This document shows positions 2 through 33,972 of a stretch of DNA of 64,000 bases, piece after piece. The DNA lies in the IMG/VR virus record IMGVR_UViG_3300021431_000016, positions 1,906 through 65,905 of that record; one strand, 5' to 3'. Both the position numbers and the translations under genes were made by a program. Source of the DNA: a virus. Taxonomy: Duplodnaviria; Caudoviricetes. The notes under the pieces were generated by a model. The model saw only the letters and a program-made list of their open reading frames with translations. It was not told where the DNA came from and did not search any database. Positions within the stretch are counted from its first letter, which is position 1, and each line of letters opens with the position of its first letter.

Positions 2-3000
2 AACGGCGGCTTAAAGGCTGGCGAAGACAAATGGATGGGTTTGAGCCAATGGCTTGAGGACAACAAGGGTAAGTCTTTGACCAAGGAAGAAGTTCAGCAG
101 TTCATTGCCGATAACGGCATTGAGATGGAAGAGACCACCTATAGCGAGGCACCTCAATCGTTTGACTCATTAAAACGTGAGTATGACCAATGGCTGCATG
201 ATGAAGGGTTCGACTACGCACAGGAGCAGCTGCGTGGGCGTTTCGGTGACGAAGCCGACATTGCCTTTGATGACCTGGGTGGAGAGTTGGTGATTGCAAA
301 CGAGGAAGCGGCTGCCGCCTTGCTTGGGAGTGACGACATAATCAATCAGACTCGCCTTGACTACACCACCGAGGGATTGGAGAACAAGCGCGAGATAGCG
401 TTTGTGGTGCCTGGCGTGGAGCCGTACCAGGAGAACGACGCGGTGCACTTCGGTCCCGAGAACGAGGGTCGTGCGGTGATGTGGGTGCGTTTTGGCGAGA
501 CGACTGACAAGGACGGCAACCGCGTGCTGGTGATTGACGAGATACAGAGCAATAGGCATCAAGATGCGAGAGAGAAGGGGTATAAGGAAAATCCCTTTGA
601 CAATCAATACAGACTTGCGAAAGAAAGATTTGAGCAATATATTAAATTTTTAGACGAAAAATATGGAGGCAAGGCAACCCCAGAAGATTTAAATCCAGAA
701 GAAAGAGCAAAAGTTTTAGAACTAAGCAGAGAAAAAGGTCGATTAAATAATGCACGCATAGCGCAGAATGAAGAGAATTGGAGAAATAAAAAAGTTCCCT
801 CTGCTCCCTTCGAGAAGAACTGGCACGAGGTGGCTATGAAGCGCATGCTTCGTCTTGCCGCGGAGGAAGGCTTCGACAAGGTGGCATGGACTACAGGCGA
901 GCAGCAGGCCGAGCGTTACGGCATCGGCGGCGTGGTGGAAAGCATCACCAAGGGCAAAACCCGCGGCGAGAACACGCTGGTGTCGGTACAGTACAAGAAC
1001 GGCAAGCATGACAGCTGGGTGGTCGCCACCGACGGCAAAGTGGTGGACGGCGGTATCACCACAGGCGAGAACCTGTCAGACCTTATCGGCAAAGAACTGT
1101 CGGAGAAAGTGATTTCGCTGGACGAGAACGGCTCTATTGAGGGTGACGGTTTGCGCATCGGTGGCGAGGGCATGAAAGGCTTCTACGACCAGATGCTGCC
1201 GAGGTTTATGGACAAGTACGGCAAACGTTGGGGTGTTAAGACTGGCACTGTAGAGCTACCTAACGTAGAAGAAGCAGGAAGAACCATGCACTCGGTAGAC
1301 GTTACTCCCGAGATGAAGGAGAGCGTAATGCAGGGTCAGCCGTTGTTCCGTCAGAAAGAGCCTATGGGCGAGCGTGGTGTAAAGAAGGTCACAGTGGTTA
1401 GCGAGCCTGAATACCGTGAAGGCACGGACTACTTCGGCAGGCCTATGACGCACAGGGTAAGACCTGGTCAATACAAGGTAGAAGGTTACGACGACATTTT
1501 CAACAGCGTTGAGGAAGTCGCAGACTTCATGCGAAAGAAAAATCCAGACTATTGTGTATACATTGATGAGGACGGCAACATCGGTTACGAGACATGGAGT
1601 AATATTCTTCCCGAGGGGATGAAGCCCAACACTTACGCAAAGATATTAGCGTCAAACGGTGGTAAGCTGAGCTCTGCCATGAGGAAGCGAATTGAGCGTT
1701 ATACACAACGCGAGATGCAACAGGCAAGGGTTCGCGCCGAGGAAATCACCAAAGAGTTAGGTCTTGATGTGGAGTTCCACGATGATCCAAGCGAGTTCAC
1801 TGGTCGCAAAGCAAAGGCAAAAGGGTGGTATGACCCAAAGACTGGTAAGATTCACATTGTGATGGGCAACCACAGCGGCGTGAGCGACGTGATGGCCACC
1901 ATGCTTCATGAGGGCGTAGCACATCACGGCTTGCGTAAACTCTTTGGAGAAGACTTCGACACATTCCTCGACAACGTTCACAACAATGTAAGTGAAGATA
2001 TTCGCACAGATATAAACGACAGGATAGAGAAGATGCGTACTGCCGACGAGAAGAACAACGTGACACGCAGCGACGATTACTACCGTCGTGCCGCCACCGA
2101 GGAATATCTTGCCGACCTTGCAGAAGATGGGCTCTATAATGGTGAGAAGAACACAGGATATGCCTCAAGGGCTTGGCAGTGGATAAAAGAGAACTTCATC
2201 AACATGCTTCGTAAAGCAGGCATCAACATTGAGTTGAGTGATGATGAACTGCGCTATATCCTGTGGAGTTCTCATAAGAATTTGCGTCGTGGTGCCGAGG
2301 CAATGGCCGAGGACGCAGTAATGCGTGAAAAGGCAGGCATCAAGGATTATGTAGAGGACGGCGAGCCTGTGAGGACTGTTGCAGAAAACAATGTGCGGTA
2401 TGGTGACGAGGAAGCTATGCGCAAGCAGCAGGAATCCAAGAATTTCAAGGATTGGTTCGGTGATTGGGAGAACGACCCAGAGCATTCAAGCAAGGTGGTT
2501 GACAAGGATGGTAGACCGTTGATTATGTCGCACAACACCAGCAACGAGTTCTACACCTTTGACCGAGAGAGAATAGGCACAGGGCAAGGACAAGCATATC
2601 TTGGCGTAGGATTCAATTTCTCACGCACAGGAAATGGCGTATACGGCAACAACGAGATGAAAGTCTATCTTGATGCCCGCAATCCACTTGAGAGCGACGG
2701 GCATAAACTGACGCGCCGTGATGTAGAGAGCGTTCTTCGCCAATTAGACGAAGGACAATCAGACACCATTGCCGCAGAGTTCGCAGGCGAGTATGCCCCT
2801 TATGGCTCTGCCGAATACAACAGGGCCTTGAGGAAAGCAGTGCAGAATCTTATGGATAATGATGACTTGGGCATAGTAGGTTCAATAAGTGTTGTCGCTG
2901 GCACGGCAAGAGCCAATGATATCATTGATGCTTTCAAGAAATTAGGTTTTGACTCAACCATTGAGAAAGACAATGACGGCAGAATTATGAATGCGGTGGT

Positions 3001-6000
3001 TTTCGACACCACCCAAATCAAGTCAGCCACCGACAACAACGGCGACTTCTCACGGGAGAATCCTGATATTCGTTTCCGTGACGGTGAGGAAGAAGCTACT
3101 CCTGCCAATGACTTGGCGGCGCGTTTGCGTGAGAGGATGCGTGAGCGCATGGAGCGTGCGAGGGCGGCGGCTGGCGGTGCGGAGCCTCCTGTAGAACCCC
3201 CTACTCCACCGGCACCTGCCACTCCAGAGCCTGCGCCCGAACTACCACCGACAGGTTATGACCGCCCAATGACTCCTATAGAGATGGCACAGGAGGCGGC
3301 GATAAAGGCAGTCGCTGACACCAAGGCCAACCTTGAGCAGCGCAACACGGCGAGACGTGAGCTTGACGCCTCGTTGAAGAATCTCCACAAGGCAATGCGT
3401 TTGCAGAAGGAATACGACAGGGCTACAGTAGAGAACGTGGTCACACTTGCAAAGATGATGGTCAAGAGTGGATTGATAGACCGCAGATACATCAGCAACC
3501 TCACCCCATTGTTCACTAAGTTGAAGGATGCGACAGGGAAGGAAGACCTCACGTCGACCGTCAACGGCATCATGGACGTGATGCTCAAGAGCCAGGAGCG
3601 CAGCATACGTAACGAGCTCGCCAAGTTGATGAAAGTCACAGGGACAAAGGTCGATGAAAACGGCGTTGTGAAGCAGGCGGGTCTTGATATTAGGGGTCAG
3701 CATACCATGCAAGAATTGTCTGAATATATGAACAAGGGCAGTAAGATTATCGACAAACGCATTGAGAGGCTTGAGGAGATGAGGAGTCGTATCCCTGAAG
3801 ATTCCACCGACAGGCTGAATGAGATTGACGATAAAATACTTGGGTGTCAGCTTGCAAAGCAATATTCGGAGATAGAAGAGACCCATGGTGTGAACATTAG
3901 CGAGGCAGAGGGCGACCTTGATTTTTTAAAGGAGAGGTATAAGTCTGGTGAAATGGGTATAAAAGAATATACCGAGCAGAAGCACGCCCTTGAGAATCTC
4001 ATTCGTAGCTACCGAATGTCGCAGGTTGATGCCTTATGGAACCAAATTAAAGCGATTCATTGGGTTATCACAGACAGCAAGGAAGATTCAAGGAATTGGA
4101 TAGAGCAGCAGAAAGAACACAAGGGAGAGATTCTTCATGATGCGTATAGTGATATGCAGGGTGTTCCATCTTACACACAGGGAGACAACACCAAAATGCA
4201 GGAGATTGCGAATAGCGCCCTGCCTAAGTTCTTCTCGTCTTCGTTGTTTACTCTACAGACAATGCTCAAGAGCCTCGGCAACAAGCATGCTCTGGGCGAA
4301 GGATACAGCTACAACCGCTTCTTCCGCGGCTGGATGGAGAACCGTGATGCGGAGATAACGGAGTATCGTGACGACATGAAAACTCTAAACGCAAAGGCTA
4401 GGGAGTTGACAGGGCACAGCTACTTCGGCATCTACAACATGATACAGAAACTTCCTAAAATGACCGTTGACTATTACGATGGTGGAGAGATGCGCCCACA
4501 TGACTTAGACCAGGGACAACTTGGTTACGCCTATATGGTCAATAAGATGGAAGACGGCGCGGCAGCGTTGCGTAATATGGGAATCACAGAGGAGAAGATG
4601 CAGGAGATAGCGAATTTCCTTGACCCGAACCTCAAGAGGTTCTATGATTGGTTGCAAGACGATTTCCTTGCAGGCAAGTGGGACGGCATGAATGAAGTTC
4701 ACAAAAGGCTGTTCGGCGCTGATATGGACCGTGTAGAGAACTACATACCATTAATACGAGACAGGGAAGCTGGCATTCAAAAGGTAGACATCTCACAAGA
4801 GGGCGAGACACCGTTGCAGTCAACTGTTGTAGGAAGCGTCATTCAGCGCGTTCACAGCAATCTTGGAGTCGACCTTAAGCACAGTAATGCTATTGATGTA
4901 GTGGCAAATCACTTGTTAGAGGCGACCCATTGGAAACATTTCTCTGAGTGGAAGCGTGACTCAAACACACTGCTTAGTGACACAAAATTCCGTAACAAGG
5001 TAAAGAACAGCACTACCATTTACGGAAGTGGCAAAATCTTGTGGGAGAGACTTAATCAGGTGTTCCAGATAGCAGGCGGCGATTATAAGCCAAGCGCGAA
5101 ATCGTCAAGCATAGATAAGGCTATTGTTGATATGGCGCGCACCGTCAATACGGCGAAAGTTAGTTTACGTGTGTTTACGGCGACCAAGCAGTTGCTCTCT
5201 CTGCCTGTATTCGCAACGGAGTGTAATCCCGCCATATTGATGAAGAACCTTGCGTTCCTATTGTCGCCGAACAAGACTAGTGGAGACGCAACGCAGAACA
5301 GTTTCGTCTGGTGTATAGAGAACCTTCCTCAGTTCCGTGAGCGTTGGGTGAGCCGAATAGCAGGAGAGACTCGCCTTGAGAACGGCGATTTAGGATGGGG
5401 TTACTCACGTCAGAAAGTCCTTGAGGCGGCAGCGCGCGTCGGTCTTACGCCAAATGCGTTCATTGACGCTTGCACTGTTGCCGCTGGCGCCAAGAGCATC
5501 TACGAGAAACGTTTTGCTCAGTACAAGAAAGACGGATTCAGCGAGGAGAAGGCAGACCACAAGGCAAAGATAGATGCCGAGATTGCTTTCAACGAGAGTC
5601 AGCAGTCGAGCGAGAAAGCCTTTGTGTCGCCTATACAAGTAGACCGAACAGCAGTTGCTTTAGGCCTGTCTACTTTCCGTAATGCGTCTATGGGCTATGA
5701 ACGCAAGTTTGTAGATTCCATAAAAACATTCCGGCACCTCACTGACCATAAGGAAACGGTAGAGTTTATGAAGAAGCAATTGGTGCGTGAAGGCCTCACG
5801 GAGACACAGGCCAAGGATGCAGCAGAGCGCATGTATCGACGTGCATTATGGCGCAGCACCTTGAACTTTCTGATGTTTGGTTTCGGCGCACAGATGGCGT
5901 GGAACGTGGGTGGCAAGCTTCCATATCTTATCTTTGGTGACGACGACGAGGAGAAGAAGAAAATTGTGAACGAGGCTGCCGTACATGCAGGTATCGGTGG

Positions 6001-7300
6001 ATGGGTAGAAGGTCTGCCTACAGGCGACATGCTCAGCGAGGGAATGACGAATTGGGCTATGAACCTCATGGAAAGCGGCAATCCGTTTGGGGGGAAGAGT
6101 TTCTTTGAGTTTGACCCGGACCTGCTCACGGTGACGAGTGATGCCGTAAAGGTTACTAAATATCTTGAGGGGAAGAACCCGTTAAAGGGTGCGACTGCGT
6201 TTGTAAACCTCTTGGGGCAGATTTATACCGGCGTGAATCCAGAGACATTCACGGACGCAGGAGTAGCAATCTATGATGCTTGCAATGGCGACCCCAAGGT
6301 GGGGAATGAGGCGCTGATGTGTGTACTCCGTATCATGCAGTGCCCACAGTCACAGCTTGACCAGATGTATATCGACGAGCTGAAGATGTCGGCGCGTGAG
6401 GCGCAAAAACTCACTCCCGAAGAAGTTGCTCGCCGCTATGCGTATTACAAGGCGCACAAGGACACTCCTTACATGTGGTGGATGTATAACCAGGACAAGA
6501 AAGATGAGATAGTGAAGAAGTACGAAGGTGACTTCAACAAGAAACTCAACGAGGATGTGAAAAAGGCTGGCGGCACCCCCGAGGACTATCACGACCTGAT
6601 GGAAAGTTCTACCACCAACAAGGAACACGACAAGTACAAGAGCAAGGAGATAGACGCCCTTTCGGAGCAAGGCCCCGAAGCATTGATGAAGGCGTGGGAG
6701 AAGGAACGCAACAAAGGCGCTGCCGCCGACTACAAGTATATGAAGTCGTTGATGACGAGATACCAGAAAGACGTGTACGGCAAGGGCAAGACCCCCGACG
6801 ATGCAGACGAAGCAGAACTCTATCAAGAGACACATGGCGAGGACATTAAAGAACAGGCTCAGAAGATAGGCCGTGACCTGGGTTTCGGTGCCCAGGACTC
6901 CTACTTCCAGCTGTCGCACTACAAGGCACAGCACACGTCGGCGAAAGACCCTGTGATGAAGGAATTCAAGGGCACTGATGCGGAATTCAAATACTCCAAA
7001 GACGGCAAGTTTTACAAGATGGAGGATTATAACTATAAAGTGCCTGTCAAAGACCCAGCGAAGCGCGCGAAAGCCTTGAAGGTCATAAAAGGCCACAAAG
7101 AAGAGCTTCGGCGCAACTATCGAAACGGTTGGCGCATGGCAAAGATTAAGGCCCTGTACAAGGACATCGAAGCCGAGTCGCTGAAGAAAGAGCGCGACTA
7201 TGACAAGATGAAGGCCCATTTCGCTGAGATCATCCAGATTCTTGAAGATGAGCGCAAGGACGCTGCCGAGTGGGAGAAGAAGCACCCAGCCAAGAAATGA
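2..7300 (+). CDS. Giant polyvalent virion/ejection protein, 5'-truncated (zincin metallopeptidase, ADP-ribosyltransferase-like domain, long helical C-terminal region)
   Basis: Frame is open from base 2 (NGGLKAGEDKW precedes the ORF-track Met), so the true start is upstream of the window. HEGVAH(H) zinc motif at about 1907-1927 with downstream EEYLA. ART-like block (FKDWFG..MSHNT..GFNFS..YLDARNP..GFDS..VVFDTTQIKS..NNGDF) at about 2430-3075. Pro-rich linker at about 3170-3260. Confidence 0.8.
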   Translation, partial: NGGLKAGEDKWMGLSQWLEDNKGKSLTKEEVQQFIADNGIEMEETTYSEAPQSFDSLKREYDQWLHDEGFDYAQEQLRGRFGDEADIAFDDLGGELVIANEEAAAALLGSDDIINQTRLDYTTEGLENKREIAFVVPGVEPYQENDAVHFGPENEGRAVMWVRFGETTDKDGNRVLVIDEIQSNRHQDAREKGYKENPFDNQYRLAKERFEQYIKFLDEKYGGKATPEDLNPEERAKVLELSREKGRLNNARIAQNEENWRNKKVPSAPFEKNWHEVAMKRMLRLAAEEGFDKVAWTTGEQQAERYGIGGVVESITKGKTRGENTLVSVQYKNGKHDSWVVATDGKVVDGGITTGENLSDLIGKELSEKVISLDENGSIEGDGLRIGGEGMKGFYDQMLPRFMDKYGKRWGVKTGTVELPNVEEAGRTMHSVDVTPEMKESVMQGQPLFRQKEPMGERGVKKVTVVSEPEYREGTDYFGRPMTHRVRPGQYKVEGYDDIFNSVEEVADFMRKKNPDYCVYIDEDGNIGYETWSNILPEGMKPNTYAKILASNGGKLSSAMRKRIERYTQREMQQARVRAEEITKELGLDVEFHDDPSEFTGRKAKAKGWYDPKTGKIHIVMGNHSGVSDVMATMLHEGVAHHGLRKLFGEDFDTFLDNVHNNVSEDIRTDINDRIEKMRTADEKNNVTRSDDYYRRAATEEYLADLAEDGLYNGEKNTGYASRAWQWIKENFINMLRKAGINIELSDDELRYILWSSHKNLRRGAEAMAEDAVMREKAGIKDYVEDGEPVRTVAENNVRYGDEEAMRKQQESKNFKDWFGDWENDPEHSSKVVDKDGRPLIMSHNTSNEFYTFDRERIGTGQGQAYLGVGFNFSRTGNGVYGNNEMKVYLDARNPLESDGHKLTRRDVESVLRQLDEGQSDTIAAEFAGEYAPYGSAEYNRALRKAVQNLMDNDDLGIVGSISVVAGTARANDIIDAFKKLGFDSTIEKDNDGRIMNAVVFDTTQIKSATDNNGDFSRENPDIRFRDGEEEATPANDLAARLRERMRERMERARAAAGGAEPPVEPPTPPAPATPEPAPELPPTGYDRPMTPIEMAQEAAIKAVADTKANLEQRNTARRELDASLKNLHKAMRLQKEYDRATVENVVTLAKMMVKSGLIDRRYISNLTPLFTKLKDATGKEDLTSTVNGIMDVMLKSQERSIRNELAKLMKVTGTKVDENGVVKQAGLDIRGQHTMQELSEYMNKGSKIIDKRIERLEEMRSRIPEDSTDRLNEIDDKILGCQLAKQYSEIEETHGVNISEAEGDLDFLKERYKSGEMGIKEYTEQKHALENLIRSYRMSQVDALWNQIKAIHWVITDSKEDSRNWIEQQKEHKGEILHDAYSDMQGVPSYTQGDNTKMQEIANSALPKFFSSSLFTLQTMLKSLGNKHALGEGYSYNRFFRGWMENRDAEITEYRDDMKTLNAKARELTGHSYFGIYNMIQKLPKMTVDYYDGGEMRPHDLDQGQLGYAYMVNKMEDGAAALRNMGITEEKMQEIANFLDPNLKRFYDWLQDDFLAGKWDGMNEVHKRLFGADMDRVENYIPLIRDREAGIQKVDISQEGETPLQSTVVGSVIQRVHSNLGVDLKHSNAIDVVANHLLEATHWKHFSEWKRDSNTLLSDTKFRNKVKNSTTIYGSGKILWERLNQVFQIAGGDYKPSAKSSSIDKAIVDMARTVNTAKVSLRVFTATKQLLSLPVFATECNPAILMKNLAFLLSPNKTSGDATQNSFVWCIENLPQFRERWVSRIAGETRLENGDLGWGYSRQKVLEAAARVGLTPNAFIDACTVAAGAKSIYEKRFAQYKKDGFSEEKADHKAKIDAEIAFNESQQSSEKAFVSPIQVDRTAVALGLSTFRNASMGYERKFVDSIKTFRHLTDHKETVEFMKKQLVREGLTETQAKDAAERMYRRALWRSTLNFLMFGFGAQMAWNVGGKLPYLIFGDDDEEKKKIVNEAAVHAGIGGWVEGLPTGDMLSEGMTNWAMNLMESGNPFGGKSFFEFDPDLLTVTSDAVKVTKYLEGKNPLKGATAFVNLLGQIYTGVNPETFTDAGVAIYDACNGDPKVGNEALMCVLRIMQCPQSQLDQMYIDELKMSAREAQKLTPEEVARRYAYYKAHKDTPYMWWMYNQDKKDEIVKKYEGDFNKKLNEDVKKAGGTPEDYHDLMESSTTNKEHDKYKSKEIDALSEQGPEALMKAWEKERNKGAAADYKYMKSLMTRYQKDVYGKGKTPDDADEAELYQETHGEDIKEQAQKIGRDLGFGAQDSYFQLSHYKAQHTSAKDPVMKEFKGTDAEFKYSKDGKFYKMEDYNYKVPVKDPAKRAKALKVIKGHKEELRRNYRNGWRMAKIKALYKDIEAESLKKERDYDKMKAHFAEIIQILEDERKDAAEWEKKHPAKK

Positions 7301-13789: not shown

Positions 13790-14190
13790 GAGTGACGATT
13801 TCAAGGAGCGAGATAGAGAAGGCGGCGATTCAGCTAAGCGAGTACATCGGCGAAAAAAGCGGGGCCTACGAGCAGGTGCGCGCAATCACCTACGACCGCC
13901 CGCTGTTGGACGGCTGGATAGCGCAGGCCATGACAGAGATTGGCGACCTTCTCGACCGCGTTACAAAGTTCGTGTATCGTGACGGCGACCACATGAGCAT
14001 AGAGCTCAAGGAGACCGTCACAAGACCACAAGAGGTGGAAGCATTGATGGTGCGCTACGCCAAGTACAGCGTTGTCGCCCACTGGCTGAACCTCGTACTA
14101 CCACAGGCTGCGGCGACCTATGAGGCCGACCGCCAGAGAGAATTGACAGAGTTAGTGAATTTAGCATATTATCGTAAAATGCCAAAATGA
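13786..14190 (+). CDS. Putative helical adaptor protein (paralogue of 45885-46457)
   Basis: Translationally coupled; visible similarity to the post-portal gene. Confidence 0.5.
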   Translation: MRVTISRSEIEKAAIQLSEYIGEKSGAYEQVRAITYDRPLLDGWIAQAMTEIGDLLDRVTKFVYRDGDHMSIELKETVTRPQEVEALMVRYAKYSVVAHWLNLVLPQAAATYEADRQRELTELVNLAYYRKMPK

Positions 14191-15878
14191 GCAGAACAAG
14201 AGTAAATTACAAATCAGACTTGCCGCCTGTAGCGGTTAAGTTTAAAATAAACGGCAGTGTGGTTGATGTCCCTAGCCATGATTTCGTTATCCGCTTCTTT
14301 GTGGACGGTGCGCCAGGCACAAGTTTTGAGTGCGCCCATAAGGGGGATGAGTATATCAACTGCGCCAAGACTGCTGACGACACCTTAACGTGCTACATCA
14401 ACAATCATAAGTTTGGGTGTGGGCGTTTGTGTTGTGAGTTCATAGACCTTTCGGCAGACAGCAGATACGAAGACAAGGTTCTTAAAACCGTCACTCCCTC
14501 TGCTCTTGATGTCGTTCTTGTGGAAGGGGCAGGCGACTCCAACGTTGAGGTGCTTAATATCATTTTCGGTTATGAGATTAACGAGATTGCAGAAATAACA
14601 GCAGTAGAAAGCTCGGAGGATGGCGGCAACAATGTAATCACTATCACACAGACTAACGGCGAAGAGTTTTCTTTCAACGTAAAAAACGGCACAAAGGGTT
14701 CAACAGGCGAAATGGGGCCAGAAGGACCTCAAGGACCAACAGGGCCTCAAGGACTAACAGGGCCTCAAGGACCAAAAGGCGACAGCGGTGTCCACCTCGG
14801 CGATGTGGTTCTCGTCAACAACCTCTCAGAAGGTGGAGAGGAGTCAGCCCTAAGTGCCGAAATGGGCATTGCCATTCGTGACATTATTGAACAAATCTTC
14901 AATGCTCTGGGAGAATATTCCTTTCCAAACGGCAAACCAACCATTGATTGGACAGGTGGTTTTGTCTCAATAAATCTTAACCTTTCCGACTTTACAAGCA
15001 GCAATATGAGCGACACGACCAAAAGGGGAGACGCATACACAACAACATTAACCCCCGCTCATAGCAGCAACCTTTATGTTAATGAGGTTGTCATTATGAT
15101 GGGAGATGAGGATATAACCGCCACCGCATACAATGAAAGCACTGGAGTTGTGAGTATCGCAGAAGTGACTGGCGCAATAGAGATAACCGCATCGCAGGAA
15201 ACTTATGTGCAGGATGGGCTTGTGCTGCATCTTGACGGAAAGAATAGAGGTGGCACGGCTGGGCATTGGGTTTCACTTGTTGACTACAATGGGGCACCAA
15301 TAGACTTCACCCTCACAGATTGCGATGAGACGCATGATGACTATGTAGCATTCAATGGGACAACCTCGAAAGGTGTTGGCAGTGTAAGTCTGCTTGATGT
15401 GTCAGCGGAAAGCGGGACAATTGAGGCAGCATATAACGGAGGTGAGTTGAACTCCAATCAGTTTGGCATTATGTACAACGCACTTGGCTCTAATAAGCGA
15501 ATATGTCTTGCATCGTGGAATCAAAATAGTGATGCAAACAACAACCTAATTGTGATATGTGCAGCATCTTCTAACACCTCATACGTTCCTTCAGACATAG
15601 GCGCAAAGTTTTCTAAGGCATCTATCACAAGTGGTGGTGTTATAAGTTGTTCTAAAGGCAACTTTAAAATAAACCAACAAAGTCAACTGTCCTATGCTGA
15701 CGCCTACCAAACAACTGACAGTGAATCTATGTTGTCATTGTTTTGGCGAAAACTATCATCAAGCGAAAGATTCTTCAAAGGCAACCTGCAATCATTGAGG
15801 GTATACAATCGCATCTTAACTAATGCAGAGAGAGCGCAAAATTATCGTGTTGATTCTATACGATTTAATCTTACATAA
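14187..15878 (+). CDS. Tail fibre / receptor-binding protein with collagen repeat, Ig-like and LamG-like domains
   Basis: About 11 G-X-Y triplets at about 14690-14790; VNNLSEGGEESALSAEMG hinge; C-terminal YVQDGLVLHLDG...LRVYNRILT motif of LamG/ConA domains. Confidence 0.75.
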   Translation: MSRTRVNYKSDLPPVAVKFKINGSVVDVPSHDFVIRFFVDGAPGTSFECAHKGDEYINCAKTADDTLTCYINNHKFGCGRLCCEFIDLSADSRYEDKVLKTVTPSALDVVLVEGAGDSNVEVLNIIFGYEINEIAEITAVESSEDGGNNVITITQTNGEEFSFNVKNGTKGSTGEMGPEGPQGPTGPQGLTGPQGPKGDSGVHLGDVVLVNNLSEGGEESALSAEMGIAIRDIIEQIFNALGEYSFPNGKPTIDWTGGFVSINLNLSDFTSSNMSDTTKRGDAYTTTLTPAHSSNLYVNEVVIMMGDEDITATAYNESTGVVSIAEVTGAIEITASQETYVQDGLVLHLDGKNRGGTAGHWVSLVDYNGAPIDFTLTDCDETHDDYVAFNGTTSKGVGSVSLLDVSAESGTIEAAYNGGELNSNQFGIMYNALGSNKRICLASWNQNSDANNNLIVICAASSNTSYVPSDIGAKFSKASITSGGVISCSKGNFKINQQSQLSYADAYQTTDSESMLSLFWRKLSSSERFFKGNLQSLRVYNRILTNAERAQNYRVDSIRFNLT

Positions 15879-15880
15879 TT

Positions 15881-16867
15881 ATGTCAATCCAAACACTGTA
15901 CAAAACCGACAAGGGCAATGATTTTATTGCTAAATTGAATACAAATTTTGCCGATATAGGCAATCTTGCTTTTAGTGACAATGATTGCAGAGCAAGATTC
16001 ATTCAAGAGATGAACAAAAAAGCGCAATTATTGGGGATGTTTAACACGACATTCTATGACCCTGCTGGAAATCAACCAGCAACATTGTATTTACCGAACT
16101 ACCAACAGCAATATCCGCAAATGTTTTTGAGTGAGAATGCCAACACCATGTCGGCAATTGATGCGCTTAAAATGTTGCTATTTGCAAGTGGGATTAGGCA
16201 AATCAATAGTGCGTGGTCATTGGCTACATACACACTTAACTATACCAATGGAGAAACTGAAAAAACTGCAACAATTACATCCTCTGTTATGGGCAAAAGT
16301 GATGCACTTGCAACAAGTTATCAAATATTGGGAGGCAAGACTGGTTCAATGCTTTTTGCCCCTCTTAATGCAAAAACACTTGTTGTGGTTGCTCGTTCAA
16401 TTGCAACGGGTAAAATATTCATCTGTGCTGATTTCAGCACTTCTACTACAGCTATAAGGGACAATGTTAAAAGCATACTTGATGCCGCAGATAACAATAC
16501 TGCTGCGCCACAATATTCACAAGGTGCTTATTGTGTCGGTGAATTGCCAGCCATCACACCATCGTTATATTGCAGAACTGACATCCCTCTTATATATACA
16601 TTCAATAGCGAAAATGTTTCTTATCCTGCGTCTGTCACCAAGATAATGACTGCAATCTTGCTATGTGAAAGCAACCTTGACCTTGAGAAAAAAATCGCTG
16701 TCAAAGAGAGTGACCGACAGCCACCGACTGGCACAAACTTTGTCGCTGGTGACACTTTGCGCTTGCGTGAATACTTGCAATGTATGCTAATGGAGAGCAG
16801 CAACACAAGCGCACAAGTAATTGCGAGGTATGTGGGAAATATCCTGCTTAACAGAGATAACTTTTAA
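15881..16867 (+). CDS. Circularly permuted serine DD-carboxypeptidase / penicillin-binding-protein-fold protein (peptidase S11-like)
   Basis: Contains PASVTK (SxxK), SSN (SxN), GGKTG and FIQEMNKKAQLLGMFNTTF, but in the order MN..KTG..SxxK..SxN. Confidence 0.8.
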   Translation: MSIQTLYKTDKGNDFIAKLNTNFADIGNLAFSDNDCRARFIQEMNKKAQLLGMFNTTFYDPAGNQPATLYLPNYQQQYPQMFLSENANTMSAIDALKMLLFASGIRQINSAWSLATYTLNYTNGETEKTATITSSVMGKSDALATSYQILGGKTGSMLFAPLNAKTLVVVARSIATGKIFICADFSTSTTAIRDNVKSILDAADNNTAAPQYSQGAYCVGELPAITPSLYCRTDIPLIYTFNSENVSYPASVTKIMTAILLCESNLDLEKKIAVKESDRQPPTGTNFVAGDTLRLREYLQCMLMESSNTSAQVIARYVGNILLNRDNF

Positions 16868-16950
16868 ATTGCCCAGGGAGTGACTTGCGGATAGAATACA
16901 TGAGCGACAACATAAGAACTATGGAAAGATTAACGAGATAGAGGCGCAGT

Positions 16951-16978
16951 AAAAAAAGAGGCGACCTCTGTCGCCTCT
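16951..16978 (-). terminator. Intrinsic terminator
   Basis: AGAGGCGAC-ctct-GTCGCCTCT with an A7 tract on the left, i.e. a U-tract on the minus strand. Confidence 0.7.
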
Positions 16979-17122
16979 ACCCACAATGGGGATTTAAAAG
17001 TCCCCTACTAAAATAAATCTTAATTACCACAAAAAGATTCTCCCAGATGGAAGCGTAGGGGACGTAATATCCTTAACCTTCCAAGTGGGAGATTATTGTA
17101 TAATCGCATATCTTTTTGTGGT
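16951..17122 (-). ncRNA. Candidate structured ncRNA with long hairpin and potential pseudoknot
   Basis: Minus-strand TACCTTTG promoter (17126-17133), 14-bp and 6+7-bp nested inverted repeats, 9-nt loop complementarity, intrinsic terminator at 16951-16978. Confidence 0.6.
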
Positions 17123-17146
17123 ATGCAAAGGTAATAATAAAATACT

Positions 17147-17380
17147 ATGCTTGCAATAGATTTGGTAAGATTTTGTGGTGAGATGCTGAAACGTCTTTCA
17201 GATTGTGACATATTGCTCGACGATTACAAACGAGTGGGAATGTGTGACGAGTACTGCAAACTGATTGACGAGGGACATAAAAAGGAATATGCCATTGCTG
17301 TGGTGACTGAGAAGTATAAGGTTAGTGAAAGCACTTTGAGACGAGCGTTGAAGCGGTTGTGCCGACCTGTCACGACGTGA
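17147..17380 (+). CDS. Small protein with C-terminal HTH-like segment
   Basis: KKEYAIAVVTEKYKVSESTLRRALKRL resembles an HTH recognition pattern. Confidence 0.55.
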   Translation: MLAIDLVRFCGEMLKRLSDCDILLDDYKRVGMCDEYCKLIDEGHKKEYAIAVVTEKYKVSESTLRRALKRLCRPVTT

Positions 17381-17425
17381 AAGATTAATAAGAAGGAAAT
17401 AATTGCGAAGTCATTTTGGAGTGGC

Positions 17426-17433
17426 TAACTTTG
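17426..17433 (+). promoter_or_regulatory. Host-type -7 promoter element for the 17503-20352 cassette
   Basis: TAACTTTG, without the late 13-bp motif upstream. Confidence 0.6.
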
Positions 17434-17502
17434 CGGTACCTTAAATCGCGATAAAAGGAATAACGAAAACAATCTTTATTAACTCTTAAATCTACTACAA
17501 CA

Positions 17503-20444: not shown

Positions 20445-20741
20445 ATGGAAAAGACATACGACACAAACAAAGACGGACATGTCGGTTGGAAAGAGCTGGA
20501 CTTCCGTGATAAAGTTGCATACACGATGGCGATTATCCTCATTGCCAGTGGTATCATCATGGCGTTCTTGTGCTTCTTCCTGACAGGTGACTACAACGTG
20601 ACGGACGGAGTGCTATTCTATTGTAGCGAAGTGTTCGTGACAGGTGGCGCGCTGTTAGGTATAGCCACCTACGTCAAGGGAAAATTTGGAGAGATTAGTA
20701 GTTATATACACAATAAACTTGACCATGATGAGGACTCTTAA
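20445..20741 (+). CDS. Holin candidate
   Basis: 98 aa, two hydrophobic segments, directly before the endolysin. Confidence 0.7.
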   Translation: MEKTYDTNKDGHVGWKELDFRDKVAYTMAIILIASGIIMAFLCFFLTGDYNVTDGVLFYCSEVFVTGGALLGIATYVKGKFGEISSYIHNKLDHDEDS

Positions 20742-21546
20742 GACAGGATGCAATGGTGACGAGGTCAAGACCTTGCAGAAACTTCTTAACAAGGAGGGAT
20801 ATAATCTTGTTGTCGATTCGGACTTTGGCCAAAAGACGCACGATGCTCTTGTAGCATGGCAGAAGGCTCACGGCTTAGTTGCCGACGGCATCGTTGGCCC
20901 CAAGACATGGGCAGCGCTGATGACTGTTGCAAAAAACGCAACAGTCGTTGACCCAAGTGTGATATACATGCCCTTGAAGTCTTGCATCACAAAGACACCG
21001 AACAGGACAATCAGGTACATTGCCATCCACTACACGGCTGGTGCGAGTTCTGCCCCTGGGAGCGCCAAGACCATGAAAGCTGGCTGGGAGAAGGCGAAGC
21101 GTGCCTCTGCCGATTTCGGGGTTGATGACGGTACAATAGTTCAGTTCAATCCTGACCTGAAGGGCTACAGATGCTGGTCGGTCGGTGACAAGAAGAACCC
21201 TTACAGTGGCGGCGGTCAGCTCTACAAGATCGCTACCAACAGTAACACTCTCTCCATTGAGATTTGTTCTAACCTAAGGGCGGGCTTTGACAGGAATGTT
21301 CTCAACCACGGCGGCTGGTATTTCACCGAGGAATCACTTGCAAATGCTGTAAAGTTGACGAAAATTCTCATGAAGAAGTTCAACGTGCCCATTGAGAGAG
21401 TAGTCAGGCATTATGACATCTCTGGCAAGGTGTGCCCATCTGTATTGGGATGGAACAACGCTGCCATCTACACCAAGGACGGCAAGCGCACGGCAGAGAA
21501 GAGCAACAGTTCAGAGTGGGAGAAATTCAAGAACAGGCTTAAATAA
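20725..21546 (+). CDS. Endolysin: peptidoglycan-binding domain plus N-acetylmuramoyl-L-alanine amidase (Amidase_2-like)
   Basis: LKTGCNGDEVKTLQKLL..DGIVGPKTW PG-binding repeat; IAIHYT, SIEIC, RHYDISGKVCP amidase motifs. Confidence 0.9.
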   Translation: MMRTLKTGCNGDEVKTLQKLLNKEGYNLVVDSDFGQKTHDALVAWQKAHGLVADGIVGPKTWAALMTVAKNATVVDPSVIYMPLKSCITKTPNRTIRYIAIHYTAGASSAPGSAKTMKAGWEKAKRASADFGVDDGTIVQFNPDLKGYRCWSVGDKKNPYSGGGQLYKIATNSNTLSIEICSNLRAGFDRNVLNHGGWYFTEESLANAVKLTKILMKKFNVPIERVVRHYDISGKVCPSVLGWNNAAIYTKDGKRTAEKSNSSEWEKFKNRLK

Positions 21547-22273: not shown

Positions 22274-23368
22274 TCACATCTTCCCTTCGAGGATGTCGAA
22301 CCCCTCGTCGACATCTTTCTGGAGGACTTTTGCGTATATCTGCGTCGTCTTTATGTTGGAGTGGGCGAGCATACGGCTCACGGTCTCAATCCTTATTCCG
22401 CTGGATAGTGCGATGGTGGCGAATGTGTGGCGCCCGACATGCATGGATATATGTTTCTTTAATCCTGTGATTTTCTCAATTTTCCTCAACTCCACATTGG
22501 CGTGTGGGTTGGACAGGATGTTGAGGTTGTAGTCATATTTCTTGAGTATAGCCATCGCTTTTGGAAGAAGGCGCAGCTTGTACATCGAGCCTGTCTTTCT
22601 GCGGCGGTCTATGATGTACGGTTTGCCTTCGGTCATAAAGATGTCGTCCTTGCGAATCTTCACGAGGTCTACATATGCGAGGCCAGTATAGCAGGCGAAG
22701 AGAAAAAGGTCACGCGCCTGCACCTTGCGCCCTGTGAGTTTCACGTTCTCCACCTTCTCGAGTTCTTCCTGTGTAAGATAGCATATCTCCTTCCCCTTGC
22801 CTTTGGGTAGCTCCACCTTTAAGAGAGGGTCATTGGATATGAGGTTCTCTTTCATCGCAAGACGCACATACTTGCTGAACACGGCGTGGTAGTTTCTCAC
22901 AGAAGTAGGCACCATTCCTTCAGAGACCATCTTATCCACGGCCCTCTGTATTTTAGAGTGCGTTAGGTCGGCGAAATCGTTGATGCCGTTCGTGTGGTAT
23001 TTGCGCAACACGTCGAGCTGCGCGTCCTTTGTGGATTGGCGCAGGTTGGACTTCTCGGCGGCGGCTGTTGCCCATTCGTAGAAGTTCGCCTTGTTGTAAG
23101 TAATCGATAGAGAGAACGACGAGAGGTCGAAGCTGTCTTTCTCTATCTGCTGCTGGAGTTGGTTGAGCAGAATGTTCATTGACGAGGATAGCACCTTGTT
23201 AAGCGATGGCGCAGTCTTGCACCCGCTGATGATGCCCTTGGAGAATGTGGCGCCCTCGGGAACCTGGACGCCTGTGGAAAGGTACCGGCGCTTCCCTTCA
23301 TAATATACACAAGCCTCAACCTTACGGTTGTGTTTTCTGTTGTAGATGTAACTGATTTTTGGCAGCAT
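22274..23368 (-). CDS. int: Tyrosine integrase, Bacteroidales type
   Basis: RDLFLFACYTGLAYVD, RRKTG, HVGRHTFAT, MLAHSNIKTTQIYAK catalytic motifs; N-terminal arm-binding domain. Confidence 0.95.
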   Translation of the reverse strand: MLPKISYIYNRKHNRKVEACVYYEGKRRYLSTGVQVPEGATFSKGIISGCKTAPSLNKVLSSSMNILLNQLQQQIEKDSFDLSSFSLSITYNKANFYEWATAAAEKSNLRQSTKDAQLDVLRKYHTNGINDFADLTHSKIQRAVDKMVSEGMVPTSVRNYHAVFSKYVRLAMKENLISNDPLLKVELPKGKGKEICYLTQEELEKVENVKLTGRKVQARDLFLFACYTGLAYVDLVKIRKDDIFMTEGKPYIIDRRRKTGSMYKLRLLPKAMAILKKYDYNLNILSNPHANVELRKIEKITGLKKHISMHVGRHTFATIALSSGIRIETVSRMLAHSNIKTTQIYAKVLQKDVDEGFDILEGKM

Positions 23369-23892: not shown

Positions 23893-24267
23893 TTAAAAGG
23901 TTTCTTTTATCTCTTCAAGTTCGCCATAATCATCTTCTTTTGCTCGGTCTCTTATATAATGAAGGACTTTAGCGGCATACCTGCCAACATCTTGGGGTGT
24001 CTCGTCCTCAATATACACATCGTCGCCATCTCCATAAATAAATTGTCTCTTTTCTTCAAAATAAAAAGCCATTGTGTCGCAGAAGGCGACAAGAGCTGAG
24101 TCTTTCTTATGAAGTCTTTGCTCAAGGCTGTCAACGGCAGCAAGGACAGCATCTTCTTTGTCGCCTGCTGCACAACCTTTTGCGAAGTAGCCAACACCGA
24201 AATACAAAGCAACTACGAATATTAAGGCCTCAAGCATGCTCTGCCTATCACTTTTGACTTTTCCCAT
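23893..24267 (-). CDS. Hypothetical membrane protein co-transcribed with the repressor
   Basis: N-terminal TM helix ending KGC, overlaps the repressor stop. Confidence 0.65.
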   Translation of the reverse strand: MGKVKSDRQSMLEALIFVVALYFGVGYFAKGCAAGDKEDAVLAAVDSLEQRLHKKDSALVAFCDTMAFYFEEKRQFIYGDGDDVYIEDETPQDVGRYAAKVLHYIRDRAKEDDYGELEEIKETF

Positions 24268-24947
24268 TATAGTATTTGCATGTTGATGATTGCTGTTACG
24301 CGGGCGAAGCCTGTGATGTCACTCATATTTATATAATAAGGTGCGAAGTTCTCGCCTTTGTTGGCGGGGACGCATTTCACATATCCATCCTTTTCGCTCT
24401 CGGCGATGTATTTCACGGTGAAGCCTGAGCGTGTGGCGATGGCGTATCGCTCTCCGTACTCTATAAAGTTCTCGTTCCAGGGGCGCAGGCAGACTATCGC
24501 CCCGTCGTTGATGGAGAGCTCGGGATGCTCGGTGTCGATCATCGAGCGCCCATGGACCTGCACTGCGAAGTCTCCGTCCTTGACTTTGAGGAACGGAAGT
24601 TTCACATCGTCTACTTTCTGGGCACTCATGATAGGCGCACCTTCTCCTTGCAGATAGCCGCCTGTGAAAATCTCCTCGTCGAAGAATGGAAGAGCGTTCT
24701 CATTTTTGTTACCGTTGGTATCAACTATCTCACCGTTCCCATCAAGATAAGGTTCTCCTTCTCCATCTTTCAACCAGTTGTAGTTTACACTGAAGGCGTC
24801 ACTGATTTTCGCCAATGTTCTGTCCGTTATATTTTGTTCTCCCGAAAGCATTTTTCGGAAGTTTGAGGGTGCTATACCTGCCTGATTAGCAAAGGCATTG
24901 GGGTTCATTCGTGCATCCCTGACAAGTCTTTTTAGCCGTTCTTTCAT
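24267..24947 (-). CDS. CI-like repressor (XRE HTH plus S24 peptidase)
   Basis: N-terminal HTH (NAFANQAGIAPSNFRKMLSG); VHGRSM catalytic Ser and TVKY catalytic Lys. Confidence 0.9.
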   Translation of the reverse strand: MKERLKRLVRDARMNPNAFANQAGIAPSNFRKMLSGEQNITDRTLAKISDAFSVNYNWLKDGEGEPYLDGNGEIVDTNGNKNENALPFFDEEIFTGGYLQGEGAPIMSAQKVDDVKLPFLKVKDGDFAVQVHGRSMIDTEHPELSINDGAIVCLRPWNENFIEYGERYAIATRSGFTVKYIAESEKDGYVKCVPANKGENFAPYYINMSDITGFARVTAIINMQIL

Positions 24948-30834: not shown

Positions 30835-33800
30835 ATGAGTTGTCAGAATGACATGGAGAAAAGAAAAGAGACATTTGAGGAATATGGCATAAAGATTCCT
30901 TACAGACGGCGCAACGGAAATGTGAAGTGCGTCTGTCCCAACTGCAAGACATCGGGGCGCTCGCATCCCGAGGACAGGAGCCTGAGTGTGAATCTCGACA
31001 CAGGGCTGTGGCACTGCCACTACTGCGGATGGAGCGGAGCCCTGAAAGGCTATGAGGGACGTCGCCCAGAGAGGAGAAGAAACTACAACAAGCCCAAGCC
31101 CCTTGAGGAGCACGGCCTGAGCCAGAAGCTCATCAACTATTGCTCGTTAAGAGGCATATCCCTTGATACTCTCAAGGCAATGCACATCGCCGAGGGGCTG
31201 GAGTTCATGCCACAGGCGAACAAGGAGATGAACACTGTGCAGTTCCCCTACTTTCTTGAGGGCGAGCTGATCAACATCAAATACCGAACAGGCGACAAGA
31301 AGTTCAAGATGTGTGCAGGTGCTGAGCTCATTCCCTACAACATCGACGGTATCAAAGACAAAGACACGGCCGTGATAGTTGAAGGAGAGTGGGACGCGCT
31401 GAGCTTCATAGAGGCAGGCATCGACAACGTGGTGAGCGTTCCCAACGGCGCCAATGCAAACCTTGAGTGGCTGGACGATTTCCTGGAGGGGTGGTTCGAT
31501 GATAAGCAGACAATCTACATTGCCGTCGACAACGACGAGAAGGGCTTACTGCTGAGAGAGGAGCTTGTGCGTCGCTTCGGCGCAGAGCGGTGCATGGTTG
31601 TGGAGTGGTCGCAGGGCTGCAAGGACGCCAACGACCAGTTGAAGGAGTTCGGCAAGGAATCCCTGCGCAACTGTCTCACAGGCGCCCATGAAGTGAAGGT
31701 GGGCGGCATCTATTCCCTTTCCGACTACGAGAGCGAGCTTGACGCCATGTGGCGTCACGGCCTGCGGCGCGGCAAGACCATCGGCCATGAGAATTTTGAT
31801 AAGCTCGTGAGCTTCGAGACGAAGCGTCTTATGGTAGTTACAGGTGTGCCAGGCTGCCTTGACGGTGACAGCGCAGTGCTTATGTCTGACGGCACCACAA
31901 AGCCTATACGCGACGTTCAAGTCGGCGATGATGTTATGGCACTTGATAAAGACTATCGTCTCGTTACGCGCCCTGTAGTGACGAAATGGGACAGCGGAGA
32001 GAAGATGTGCTACAAGCTCACAACAAACAAGGGGCGCACGTTGATTGCCACAGGCGACCACAAGATACTTTCCTTTGACGGCATGAAGCCATTGAAAGAG
32101 TTGAAGGTGGGAGAGTTTGTCGGTTCGGCTGGTAATTATGACCCGTTTTATGGGAGCTATCTCACCGAAGACATGCTTAGACTTGTGGCGATATGGATAG
32201 CAGAAGGCAACAAGAGCCAGAACACCTACATCGTGAGCAACGGCAACCCTAAAATCGTTGAGCTGATGCAGGAAATCTGCGAGAGGAACTGCCTCAATTT
32301 CCACCACGGCGCAAAATATGAGTACATCATATCTACTCGCAAGCCATTGAAGTGTGACCGCAAGAGATATATTAGCTCCATGTCATACTATTTCAGGCAG
32401 AAGCTCGGCGTAGATACAGAGGCCTCTATCAAGATGGCCTCCGAGAAGTATGAGAAGAAGATGGCCGAGGGGTTAAGTGCTTTTAATCCTATGGAGATTA
32501 TAAAGCGCTTGGGGTTCAAAGGCTCAACCACAAACTCCTTGTTTGTGCCAGATGAGATAAAGAGGATGCCCAATGACAGTGTGGCCCTGTTCTTGAATGT
32601 GCTGTTCTCCTGTGACGGGTGTATCAGCACACAAGGCATTGAGTACAGCAGTAACAGCCAGCATCTGTGCCGCGACATTCAAGACATGCTCGCAAGGTTC
32701 GGTATCAATGCAACAATACACCATAAGAGCGTGAAGTATAATGGCACAACAAGAGACCATTATGTCCTTAATGTTTATCACTACTCTGGCGTTTTTGACT
32801 TTGCCATAAAGATTGGGCTTGTGGGACATACGGAGAAGCTGAAACGTTATCTGCAAGAACATTGTGAGGCATACAGAGGAGATTATCTCCCTGCTTCATG
32901 TAAGGATTTGCTGCCTCATGGCGACAAGTACTACAAGGAGGCCCTCGGCTTCACAATCGGCAAGAACTCTACCGACAAGAAAAGAGTGAGCAGAAAGAAG
33001 ATTGTCGAGATAGCAAGGCTCGAATGTATGACGGACTTGTTTTACAAGACGACAGGCTCCTGTATGTGGGAACAGGTCAAGAGCATTGAGGTTGTAGGCA
33101 TGCGACACACTTACGATATTCAAGTGGCAATAGACCATAACTTTGTGAGTAACAATATGTTAGTAAAAAATAGCGGGAAGTCGGAATTCATCGACGAGAT
33201 GGTGGTGAGGCTCAACGTTCGCTACGGTTGGAAGGCGGCGTTCTTCTCGCCCGAGAACCTCCCGATGAAGTATCATGCAAGCAAGATAATCGAGAAACTT
33301 ACAGGTAAGAAGTTCAGCGAGAACACGATGTCGGCTGTGGAGTATGAGGCCGCCAAGCACTACTACGCCTCGAACTTCAAGCACATATTGCCTGAAGAGA
33401 AATATACACTTGAAGCGATATTAGACAAGGCGAAATTCCTTGTACGCCGAAACGGCATAAAGGTCCTTGTGATAGACCCATACAACCGCATCGAGAGCGA
33501 CATAGGCACACAGAGCGAGACGAACTACATCTCCAAGATACTAGACCAGCTGACGAACTTCGCGCAGCGTAACGACGTGCTTGTGTGCCTCATGGCGCAC
33601 CCCCGCAAGATCAACAGGAGCGAGAACGCTGATGGCATACCAACGTTCTACGATATCAACGGCTCGGCGAACTTTTACAACAAGGCTGACTTTGGTCTGA
33701 TAGTGCACCGCAACCGCGACGAGGGCTATACCCTTGTGAGGGTGGCGAAAGTGAAGTTCCGACACCTGGGAGAGAACGGTGACGCCCTGTTCAAGTACAA

Positions 33801-33972
33801 CACCGAGAACGGCCGCTACACTCCATTTGTGGAGGGCCAACCGTGCGTGTTTGACAACAGGAGCTATATCATGGATGGAGAAAGCGCGCCCCATGTGCAA
33901 CATGAGACGGCGCCACCAGAGAGTAACTATAATTTTTTAAGTGACGTGGGCGATGGATATTGCCCATTCTGA
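30835..33972 (+). CDS. Primase-helicase (T7 gp4/Twinkle-like) interrupted by an intein
   Basis: Zn ribbon (CPNC..CHYC), TOPRIM (EGEWDA, DNDEKG, CKDAND), split Walker A GVPG|SGKS, VIDPYN, AHPRK, KVKFRHLG. Confidence 0.92.
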   Translation: MSCQNDMEKRKETFEEYGIKIPYRRRNGNVKCVCPNCKTSGRSHPEDRSLSVNLDTGLWHCHYCGWSGALKGYEGRRPERRRNYNKPKPLEEHGLSQKLINYCSLRGISLDTLKAMHIAEGLEFMPQANKEMNTVQFPYFLEGELINIKYRTGDKKFKMCAGAELIPYNIDGIKDKDTAVIVEGEWDALSFIEAGIDNVVSVPNGANANLEWLDDFLEGWFDDKQTIYIAVDNDEKGLLLREELVRRFGAERCMVVEWSQGCKDANDQLKEFGKESLRNCLTGAHEVKVGGIYSLSDYESELDAMWRHGLRRGKTIGHENFDKLVSFETKRLMVVTGVPGCLDGDSAVLMSDGTTKPIRDVQVGDDVMALDKDYRLVTRPVVTKWDSGEKMCYKLTTNKGRTLIATGDHKILSFDGMKPLKELKVGEFVGSAGNYDPFYGSYLTEDMLRLVAIWIAEGNKSQNTYIVSNGNPKIVELMQEICERNCLNFHHGAKYEYIISTRKPLKCDRKRYISSMSYYFRQKLGVDTEASIKMASEKYEKKMAEGLSAFNPMEIIKRLGFKGSTTNSLFVPDEIKRMPNDSVALFLNVLFSCDGCISTQGIEYSSNSQHLCRDIQDMLARFGINATIHHKSVKYNGTTRDHYVLNVYHYSGVFDFAIKIGLVGHTEKLKRYLQEHCEAYRGDYLPASCKDLLPHGDKYYKEALGFTIGKNSTDKKRVSRKKIVEIARLECMTDLFYKTTGSCMWEQVKSIEVVGMRHTYDIQVAIDHNFVSNNMLVKNSGKSEFIDEMVVRLNVRYGWKAAFFSPENLPMKYHASKIIEKLTGKKFSENTMSAVEYEAAKHYYASNFKHILPEEKYTLEAILDKAKFLVRRNGIKVLVIDPYNRIESDIGTQSETNYISKILDQLTNFAQRNDVLVCLMAHPRKINRSENADGIPTFYDINGSANFYNKADFGLIVHRNRDEGYTLVRVAKVKFRHLGENGDALFKYNTENGRYTPFVEGQPCVFDNRSYIMDGESAPHVQHETAPPESNYNFLSDVGDGYCPF
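31855..33171 (+). mobile_element. Intein (439 aa) with LAGLIDADG homing endonuclease
   Basis: Starts CLDGD after PG, has TGDHKIL block B, LAGLIDADG-like IWIAEG and LFSCDG, ends YDIQV..HNFVSNNMLVKN before the Ser +1. Confidence 0.9.

Follow-up and report, generated by a model that had tools for sequence, protein, structure and literature searches.

A predicted circularly permuted S11-type DD-peptidase paired with the tail-fiber gene in temperate Bacteroidales phages

The DNA analyzed in the present study, referred to below as the window, is a stretch of 64,000 nucleotides from the IMG/VR virus record IMGVR_UViG_3300021431_000016 (Caudoviricetes), and its tail region carries on the plus strand an open reading frame (ORF) that begins with an ATG at position 15881 and whose stop codon ends at 16867. 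These boundaries were confirmed as given in an initial annotation of the sequence, and the whole ORF (328 amino acids plus stop) is predicted to encode a stand-alone DD-peptidase of the S11 type in a circularly permuted form. The first 30 residues (15881-15970) form a motif with the consensus G..F..KLN.NF, which the alignment marks as specific to the near family and which had no match in Pfam. Residues 31-206 (15971-16498) correspond to the C-terminal half of a canonical S11 enzyme, comprising the MN helix, the KTG strand, the strands that follow, and the last helix, as delimited by the alignment to 1es2 and by Pfam profile positions 121-207. Residues 207-236 (16499-16588) join what are the C- and N-termini of the canonical fold by a loop and the first strand, as judged from the secondary structure of the model and the alignment ranges. 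Residues 237-328 (16589-16864) represent the canonical N-terminal half with its strand, SxxK helix, and SxN helix, an assignment based on Pfam, phmmer, and the separate VIA-align alignment of model residues 249-323 to the N-part of beta-lactamase-fold chains. The motifs are thereby encountered in the order MN helix (M44-N45 and L51-G52-M53), KTG box (K153, T154, and G155; 16337-16345), SxxK box (S251-V-T-K254, with S251 as the nucleophile; 16631-16642), and SxN box (S306-S-N308; 16796-16804), which is not the collinear order of canonical S11 enzymes.

The presence of four S11 elements in swapped order had been claimed in the initial annotation, together with a protein end at the point where the canonical chain runs into the MN helix, and profile searches, phmmer, and separate scans of the two halves agreed with this description. 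The whole protein passed the cut-off of the Pfam family Peptidase_S11 (PF00768; 50.2 bits versus a cut-off of 27.6, E = 3.2e-13) with a match split over two stretches, residues 238-318 corresponding to profile positions 26-115. When the halves were scanned apart, as had been proposed, each of them matched S11, residues 31-215 at profile positions 121-207 (E = 1.1e-4) and residues 216-328 at positions 26-115 (E = 4.2e-8). A phmmer search against PDB chains placed residues 245-321 on residues 30-106 of Bacillus subtilis DacB (3mfd) and residues 40-65 on residues 110-135 of the same chain, and the swapped pattern recurred with the PBP7-type endopeptidases 6azi and 6muq and with Staphylococcus aureus PBP4. 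Residues 237-321 are the half that carries SxxK and SxN, residues 38-66 are the helix that directly follows this half in normal enzymes, and the C-terminus stops, in the alignment to 3mfd, no more than approximately 3 residues from the point at which the N-terminal core resumes in the canonical chain. The permuted chain begins with the helix after SxN, passes by way of the KTG strand to the final strands and helix, continues over a linker of approximately 30 residues into the canonical first strand, and ends after the SxxK and SxN helices. NCBIfam recognized two out-of-order pieces of the ORF and no family at its cut-off, with the PBP7/PbpG-type model NF008668 among the best matches. A reading of residues 1-30 revealed no signal peptide or lipobox, six charged residues, and no hydrophobic run, as the initial annotation had stated, and the alignment showed no signal peptide in the bacterial copies P0037 and P0068 either. 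On the basis of these comparisons, the product is a predicted single-domain serine DD-peptidase of the S11 kind (PBP5, PBP7, and K15) whose chain is circularly permuted.

A confident monomer model obtained with AlphaFold2 and the family alignment formed one compact domain (predicted local distance difference test, pLDDT, 88.8; predicted template modeling score, pTM, 0.86). The MN helix (33-50), a helical subdomain, the KTG strand and the strands after it (147-185), and a helix (192-204) are followed in the model by strands at 216-222 and 237-241, the SxxK helix (250-264), and the SxN helix (308-327). S11 enzymes ranked top in structural comparisons with VIA-align, and these included the K15 DD-transpeptidase 1es2 (Z 10.3, root-mean-square deviation 1.9 A over 148 residues), on residues 112-262 of which model residues 31-206 were placed, and DacB 3mfd (Z 10.2). 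The structure prediction suggested in the initial annotation thus yielded a single modeled domain of the penicillin-binding protein (PBP) fold, each half of which matches S11 structures. Two chains were aligned in a single superposition across the joined termini, namely the TEM-1 part of the MBP fusion RG13 (4dxb; Z 7.3, model residues 129-323), which we take to be a permuted TEM-1, and the engineered permuted PC1 beta-lactamase (1alq; Z 6.3, model residues 177-326), and such single alignments span KTG, SxxK, and SxN. Another permuted and mostly viral cluster in the ESM Atlas aligned over residues 21-328 (TM score 0.79), whereas canonical clusters aligned over only half. A Foldseek search of the PDB with the model returned no match within E <= 0.001, and its alignments to 6azi and 6muq covered just half of the length; this is the expected behavior of a collinear aligner on a mid-chain permutation and is not evidence against the fold, and the miss is explained by the VIA-align results together with the positive control P0128, a relative described below. 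Activity through domain swapping in an oligomer, which had been proposed initially, does not appear to be needed because the compact monomer model suggests that a monomer suffices.

The permuted order is widely conserved. A search of 5.8 billion proteins recovered approximately 67 full-length clusters from many samples (38-99% identity), all with the permuted order, and a profile search of 1.84 billion representatives gave 256 matches at E <= 1e-30, with the same order in approximately 125 of the top 147. More than 120 representatives at 50% identity share it, as does a chromosomal protein of Niallia (P0068, 294 amino acids). The catalytic boxes S251/K254, S306/N308, and K153/T154/G155 are invariant in the near-family alignment. 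Among 126 distant permuted representatives, the Ser and Lys of SxxK were kept in 125 and 126, the Ser and Asn of SxN in 126 and 125, and the Lys and Gly of KTG in 125, and this near-invariance argues for an enzyme that is predicted to be active. A scan of genome contigs returned nearly exclusively canonical S11 genes, with one permuted match (a Prevotella metagenome-assembled genome, 30% identity) and no further bacterial contexts, and a scan of viral contigs returned six loci only. We attach a vanishingly small probability to the idea that faulty assembly or annotation exchanged the two halves of a normal dac gene, since the order recurs in every one of the approximately 67 clusters, which derive from independent samples and sources and exclude chance as well as the mis-assembly that the initial annotation had raised; the order is also present in Staphylococcus phage isolates, on the Niallia chromosome, and in the more than 120 representatives at 50% identity. 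Furthermore, the contig of 65,905 bp has a 127-bp terminal overlap and is a closed phage genome. We are, therefore, highly confident that the ORF encodes a genuine and, by prediction, probably active circularly permuted S11 enzyme.

Directly upstream on the same strand lies a tail-fiber gene (14187-15878; 563 amino acids), assigned by tail-fiber PHROGs; its product contains a collagen-like repeat, the C-terminus shows a weak LamG/ConA-like match, and its stop codon is 2 nucleotides ahead of the ATG of the S11 gene. A homologue of the last approximately 380 residues of this fiber directly precedes the S11 gene in all eight phage contexts (the window, L005, L008, L010, L011, L101, L103, and the IMG/VR locus L093), with 30-61% identity in the seven further contexts and a gap of 2 nucleotides in six of the seven junctions read. 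Since the pair is constant across contexts that differ in their fiber N-termini and endolysin types (Amidase_2, Peptidase_M15_3, and GH108), the C-terminal region of the fiber and the peptidase behave as a mobile cassette, and the S11 gene is the distal member of this two-gene cassette in temperate Bacteroidales phages. A dip in GC content at 15500-17500 (0.36-0.44 versus approximately 0.54 in the flanks), which spans the 3' end of the fiber gene, the peptidase gene, and a gene for a 77-residue helix-turn-helix-like protein, marks the cassette as acquired. A consensus scan found no Bacteroidetes-type -7 element (TAnnTTTG) on the plus strand between 14416 and 17156, and by this consensus argument the S11 gene is likely co-transcribed with the fiber; a sigma-70 promoter scan is uninformative for a Bacteroidales phage. 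A perfect, G+C-rich 9-bp hairpin is located at 16957-16978, 90 nucleotides beyond the end of the S11 gene; it is accompanied by a T-run on the minus strand and may be the terminator of the fiber-peptidase transcript or of a convergent minus-strand transcript.

Further downstream, the window encodes an endolysin six genes after the S11 gene (20686-21546, plus strand) and, on the minus strand, an integrase (22274-23368), which indicates that this gut phage is temperate, and a CI-like repressor (24267-24947). A P22-like portal and a large terminase subunit are also encoded, as is a primase-helicase (Toprim plus DnaB_C; 30835-33972, plus strand) split by an intein that carries a LAGLIDADG homing endonuclease. 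Other products of the window are a giant protein of 2421 amino acids that matches only PHROGs of unknown function (35-7300), a protein with a weak radical-SAM match (40128-41462), and a PcfJ-like protein (52116-53429).

The link between the enzyme and fibers extends to the wider family, in which 88 of the 126 distant permuted proteins exceed 360 amino acids and carry the domain at their C-terminal end or close to it. In P0191, the permuted S11 domain is preceded by a collagen repeat and Phage_fiber_rpt, and P0131 and P0121 match tail PHROGs, with the permuted domain C-terminal. Short N-terminal or shaft segments of the upstream fibers also recur in fused proteins, as illustrated by residues 1-47 of the L008 fiber and residues 1-47 of P0094 (51% identity). 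The fused forms and the recurring segments provide Rosetta-stone support for a physical link between fiber and peptidase, and the fused forms and constant pairing with the fiber gene bear out the tail association proposed for the domain in the initial annotation. Another metagenomic protein, P0108 (1584 amino acids), combines a weak N-terminal DUF4815 match with an M14 zinc carboxypeptidase and a permuted S11 domain, and thus appears to place two different peptide-trimming enzymes on one putative tail protein.

A tree in which the two halves were aligned separately and which was rooted on cellular S11 enzymes united all permuted forms in one clade (support 1.0), with some apparently canonical-order forms nested inside. 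Most of the latter end right after the strand following KTG, and P0127 and P0152 look truly canonical. A single permutation event was rejected: parsimony gives approximately eight topology changes on this tree, part of them due to a second type of permutation. This second natural permutation, seen in P0128, P0199, P0178, P0069/70, P0130, P0162, and others, has its break between the last two strands, so that the last strand and helix come first, and its breakpoint is that of the engineered PC1 beta-lactamase permutant 1alq. The confident model of P0128 (pLDDT 92.5), in which a strand and a long helix precede the canonical first strand, matches K15 over approximately 238 columns (E = 1.8e-15) as well as 1alq. 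As judged from sequences and models, at least three chain orders appear to coexist in the clade, and the order has probably been rearranged at least twice.

The N-terminal motif is conserved in the near family, with G12, K18, and F23 nearly invariant. The metagenomic relative P0067 (407 amino acids) carries three tandem copies of this motif of approximately 27 residues ahead of the permuted domain, which suggests that it behaves as a repeatable module. A hidden Markov model (HMM) of the motif matched no other gene in the window, the genome, or 12 related loci, and gave a weak match in 4 of 146 distant representatives; neither the Niallia protein P0068 nor the Staphylococcus phage protein has the motif, and almost all of the fused forms lack it. 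A role as a shared tail-attachment peptide was rejected because the HMM matches no other tail gene, and a role as the neck of the fused fiber forms because only the 4 weak matches were found. The initial annotation had regarded the first approximately 28 residues as resembling a tail-attachment peptide, and this part is not supported: the motif occurs in no other gene of the phage or of seven related phage loci, and it is present in copies inside bacterial capsule-like loci (P0037 and P0056). P0056 has a Leu-to-Pro change within the motif, and in another bacterial locus (L004, 7923-8016) the KLN.F motif is out of frame with the rest through two compensating frameshifts, the called gene starting after it. 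These changes, in a small sample, hint that the motif may be dispensable or decaying in the bacterial setting.

Three near-family copies, namely P0052 (L004), P0037 (L007), and P0056 (L099), with 51-55% identity to the ORF, reside in one type of capsule-like locus. These loci encode ACP, KASIII, SDR, acetyltransferases, a Wzx flippase, and between one and four ATPgrasp_ST ligases, and the peptidase invariably has a Mur ligase as its neighbor; PGA_cap-GDSL fusion proteins are encoded there as well. The Mur ligase passes the cut-off of the murF model TIGR01143 (350 and 337 bits versus 288.6), and members of the murF subfamily add D-Ala-D-Ala to a peptide. A DD-peptidase beside a ligase that adds D-Ala-D-Ala is a coherent pair, and in L099 the peptidase gene overlaps an ATP-grasp gene by 4 nucleotides. 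Bacterial and phage copies are intermixed in the tree, and P0037 is closer to the phage copies P0028 (81% identity) and P0034 (79%) than the bacterial copies are to each other (70-76%), which points to repeated exchange between phages and bacteria. The gene content suggests that these loci produce an acylated, peptide-decorated surface polymer, a type of locus for which we found no description in the literature searched, and the MurF-type and ATP-grasp neighbors suggest a D-Ala-D-Ala-terminated peptide on such a polymer as the substrate, instead of the peptidoglycan target originally proposed.

Regarding function, we favor, at close to even confidence, a fiber-associated enzyme that would recognize or process a D-Ala-D-Ala-terminated peptide on a host surface polymer, a substrate put forward because near-identical bacterial copies adjoin MurF-type and ATP-grasp ligases. 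The S11 protein would be made with the fiber from the late transcript and would work at the fiber, where it would bind, and probably cleave or transfer, the D-Ala-D-Ala-terminated peptide, thereby acting as a receptor-binding or receptor-processing enzyme. Several points weigh against this proposal. The S11 protein has no recognizable fiber-docking domain, and its N-terminal motif is common to no tail protein. Signal peptides are absent from the bacterial copies, and one of their genes overlaps an ATP-grasp gene, so that a protein whose identity reaches 81% with other phage copies (51-55% with the ORF) probably works in the cytoplasm, and the phage copy could act there likewise. Moreover, all phage contexts that are long enough are temperate and have the gene within a few kb of the integrase, a vicinity typical of conversion genes, and the promoter argument consists of a consensus scan.

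It is possible, though doubtful, that the product is instead a cytoplasmic receptor-modifying enzyme for lysogenic conversion or superinfection exclusion, the specificity of which would have to match the fiber. It would remove or transfer the D-Ala-D-Ala terminus of a precursor of capsule or glycan made by the MurF-type and ATP-grasp pathway of the host, such that the surface escapes the matching fiber. This would explain why the enzyme and the fiber tip travel together, and it is in keeping with the lack of a signal peptide, with copies of up to 81% identity to other phage copies being operon members beside cytoplasmic ligases in the bacterial capsule-like loci, with the temperate nature of the phages (an integrase and a CI-like repressor in the window as well as in L008, L010, L011, and L103), and with the low-GC, moron-like composition; the gtr conversion genes of P22 similarly adjoin the tailspike gene and int. 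However, the 2-nucleotide gap after the fiber stop codon and the lack of a promoter-like element of its own suggest late expression rather than expression in lysogens, members of the wider family form one protein with fibers, and the degraded appearance of the motif in bacterial copies (frameshifted in L004, Leu-to-Pro in P0056) hints at a phage-specific purpose. It appears improbable that the product is an accessory lysis enzyme, which would support the endolysin as a DD-endopeptidase and cleave the cross-links of peptidoglycan once the holin has acted. The best sequence matches do include PBP7/PbpG-type DD-endopeptidases (6azi, 6muq, and NF008668), every phage context has the gene between its tail and lysis modules, and the missing signal peptide fits holin-dependent release; however, adjacency to the lysis genes is not fixed, with six genes intervening in the window and a 701-residue protein gene plus two minus-strand genes (one the integrase) in L010, whereas adjacency to the fiber is invariant and the fiber-peptidase pair stays when the endolysin type changes. 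This role would also leave the fused fiber forms and the capsule-locus copies unexplained. The position right after the fiber gene is typical of fiber assembly and adhesin genes, such as T4 gp38/gp57A and the Tfa genes of Mu and P2, and is compatible with a non-catalytic fiber partner (an assembly chaperone or adhesin) that uses the PBP fold to bind; we consider this very improbable because the retention of the SxxK, SxN, and KTG residues in nearly all distant representatives is unexpected for a pure binding scaffold.

The low-molecular-mass PBPs of the S11 family, including Escherichia coli PBP5/DacA, PBP7/PbpG (6azi and 6muq), DacB (3mfd), S. aureus PBP4 (1tvf), and K15 (1es2), share with the ORF the SxxK, SxN, and KTG boxes, the MN..LGM helix, and a PF00768 score above the cut-off, and each half of the model superposes on them with Z 9-10. 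The ORF product differs in its permuted chain, which is opened between the SxN helix and the helix after it, and in having no signal peptide, membrane anchor, or PBP5_C domain, and proteins of its kind are encoded by phages next to or within fibers, or beside MurF-type ligases, and are not periplasmic housekeeping enzymes. The engineered class A beta-lactamase permutants (PC1 cp254, 1alq; TEM-1 in RG13, 4dxb), both structural matches to the model, show that the fold tolerates new termini; however, they are man-made and represent another family of the fold, and 1alq is opened between the last two strands, as are relatives of the second natural topology such as P0128 and unlike the ORF. The closest example in cultured phages is a 439-residue "serine hydrolase" of the Staphylococcus phages UHP46 and ZCSS1 (Herelleviridae, Sciuriunavirus), the C-terminal approximately 270 residues of which are collinear with residues 31-325 of the ORF (27.5% identity, E = 1e-17), although it has an N-terminal extension of approximately 165 residues, a Gram-positive host, and no KLN.NF motif. 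In the UHP46 record (L001, 19487-20806), this gene adjoins a 64-residue transglycosylase fragment in a region that does not look structural.

Enzymes that process receptors are known from phage virions, such as the capsule depolymerase tailspikes and the poly-gamma-glutamate hydrolase PghP of Bacillus phages. The predicted role of the ORF would follow the same logic of an enzyme tied to the receptor-binding apparatus and acting on a surface polymer, including peptide-type capsules, whereas the folds and chemistry of the known enzymes are different (beta-helix glycanases or lyases and a zinc hydrolase), and we know of no PBP-type serine DD-peptidase among them. The receptor-modifying conversion genes gtrABC of P22 and oac of Sf6, which lie beside the tailspike gene, have their own promoters, and encode membrane glycosyl- and acetyltransferases, resemble the present gene in being paired with a receptor-binding gene of a temperate phage, in their proximity to the integrase, and in their kinship to host enzymes for surface polymers. 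In contrast, the ORF starts 2 nucleotides after the fiber stop codon and its product is predicted to be soluble and of the DD-peptidase type.

No description of a natural permuted S11 or PBP domain was found in the literature searched, in which the permutations reported in matching papers concern Lipocone and NlpC/P60 domains, and Pfam, NCBIfam, and PHROGs hold no dedicated model for it, in agreement with the initial annotation, to which no described example was known. New here are the pairing of a stand-alone gene with a fiber, the MurF/ATP-grasp loci, and the phage-bacterium exchange. As a tentative picture, a permuted DD-peptidase of the PBP fold may shuttle between phage fibers and bacterial MurF/ATP-grasp loci; some gut Bacteroidales would decorate a capsule-like polymer with D-Ala-D-Ala-terminated peptides, and their phages would read or cut the peptide by means of an enzyme that either came from the host pathway or was passed on to it.

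Few enzyme folds have been studied as much as the PBP/beta-lactamase fold, and in a large phage-linked clade the majority of members have the permuted topology; the three topologies of this clade would constitute a natural experiment in the circular permutation of the penicillin-binding fold. Since Pfam, NCBIfam, and PHROGs see two out-of-order fragments, such proteins receive generic labels, such as "serine hydrolase" or "D-Ala-D-Ala carboxypeptidase", and the link to fibers is missed. The pairing with MurF-type ligases suggests an unexplored peptide-decorated surface polymer in gut Bacteroidales, together with a matching mechanism of recognition or evasion in their phages.

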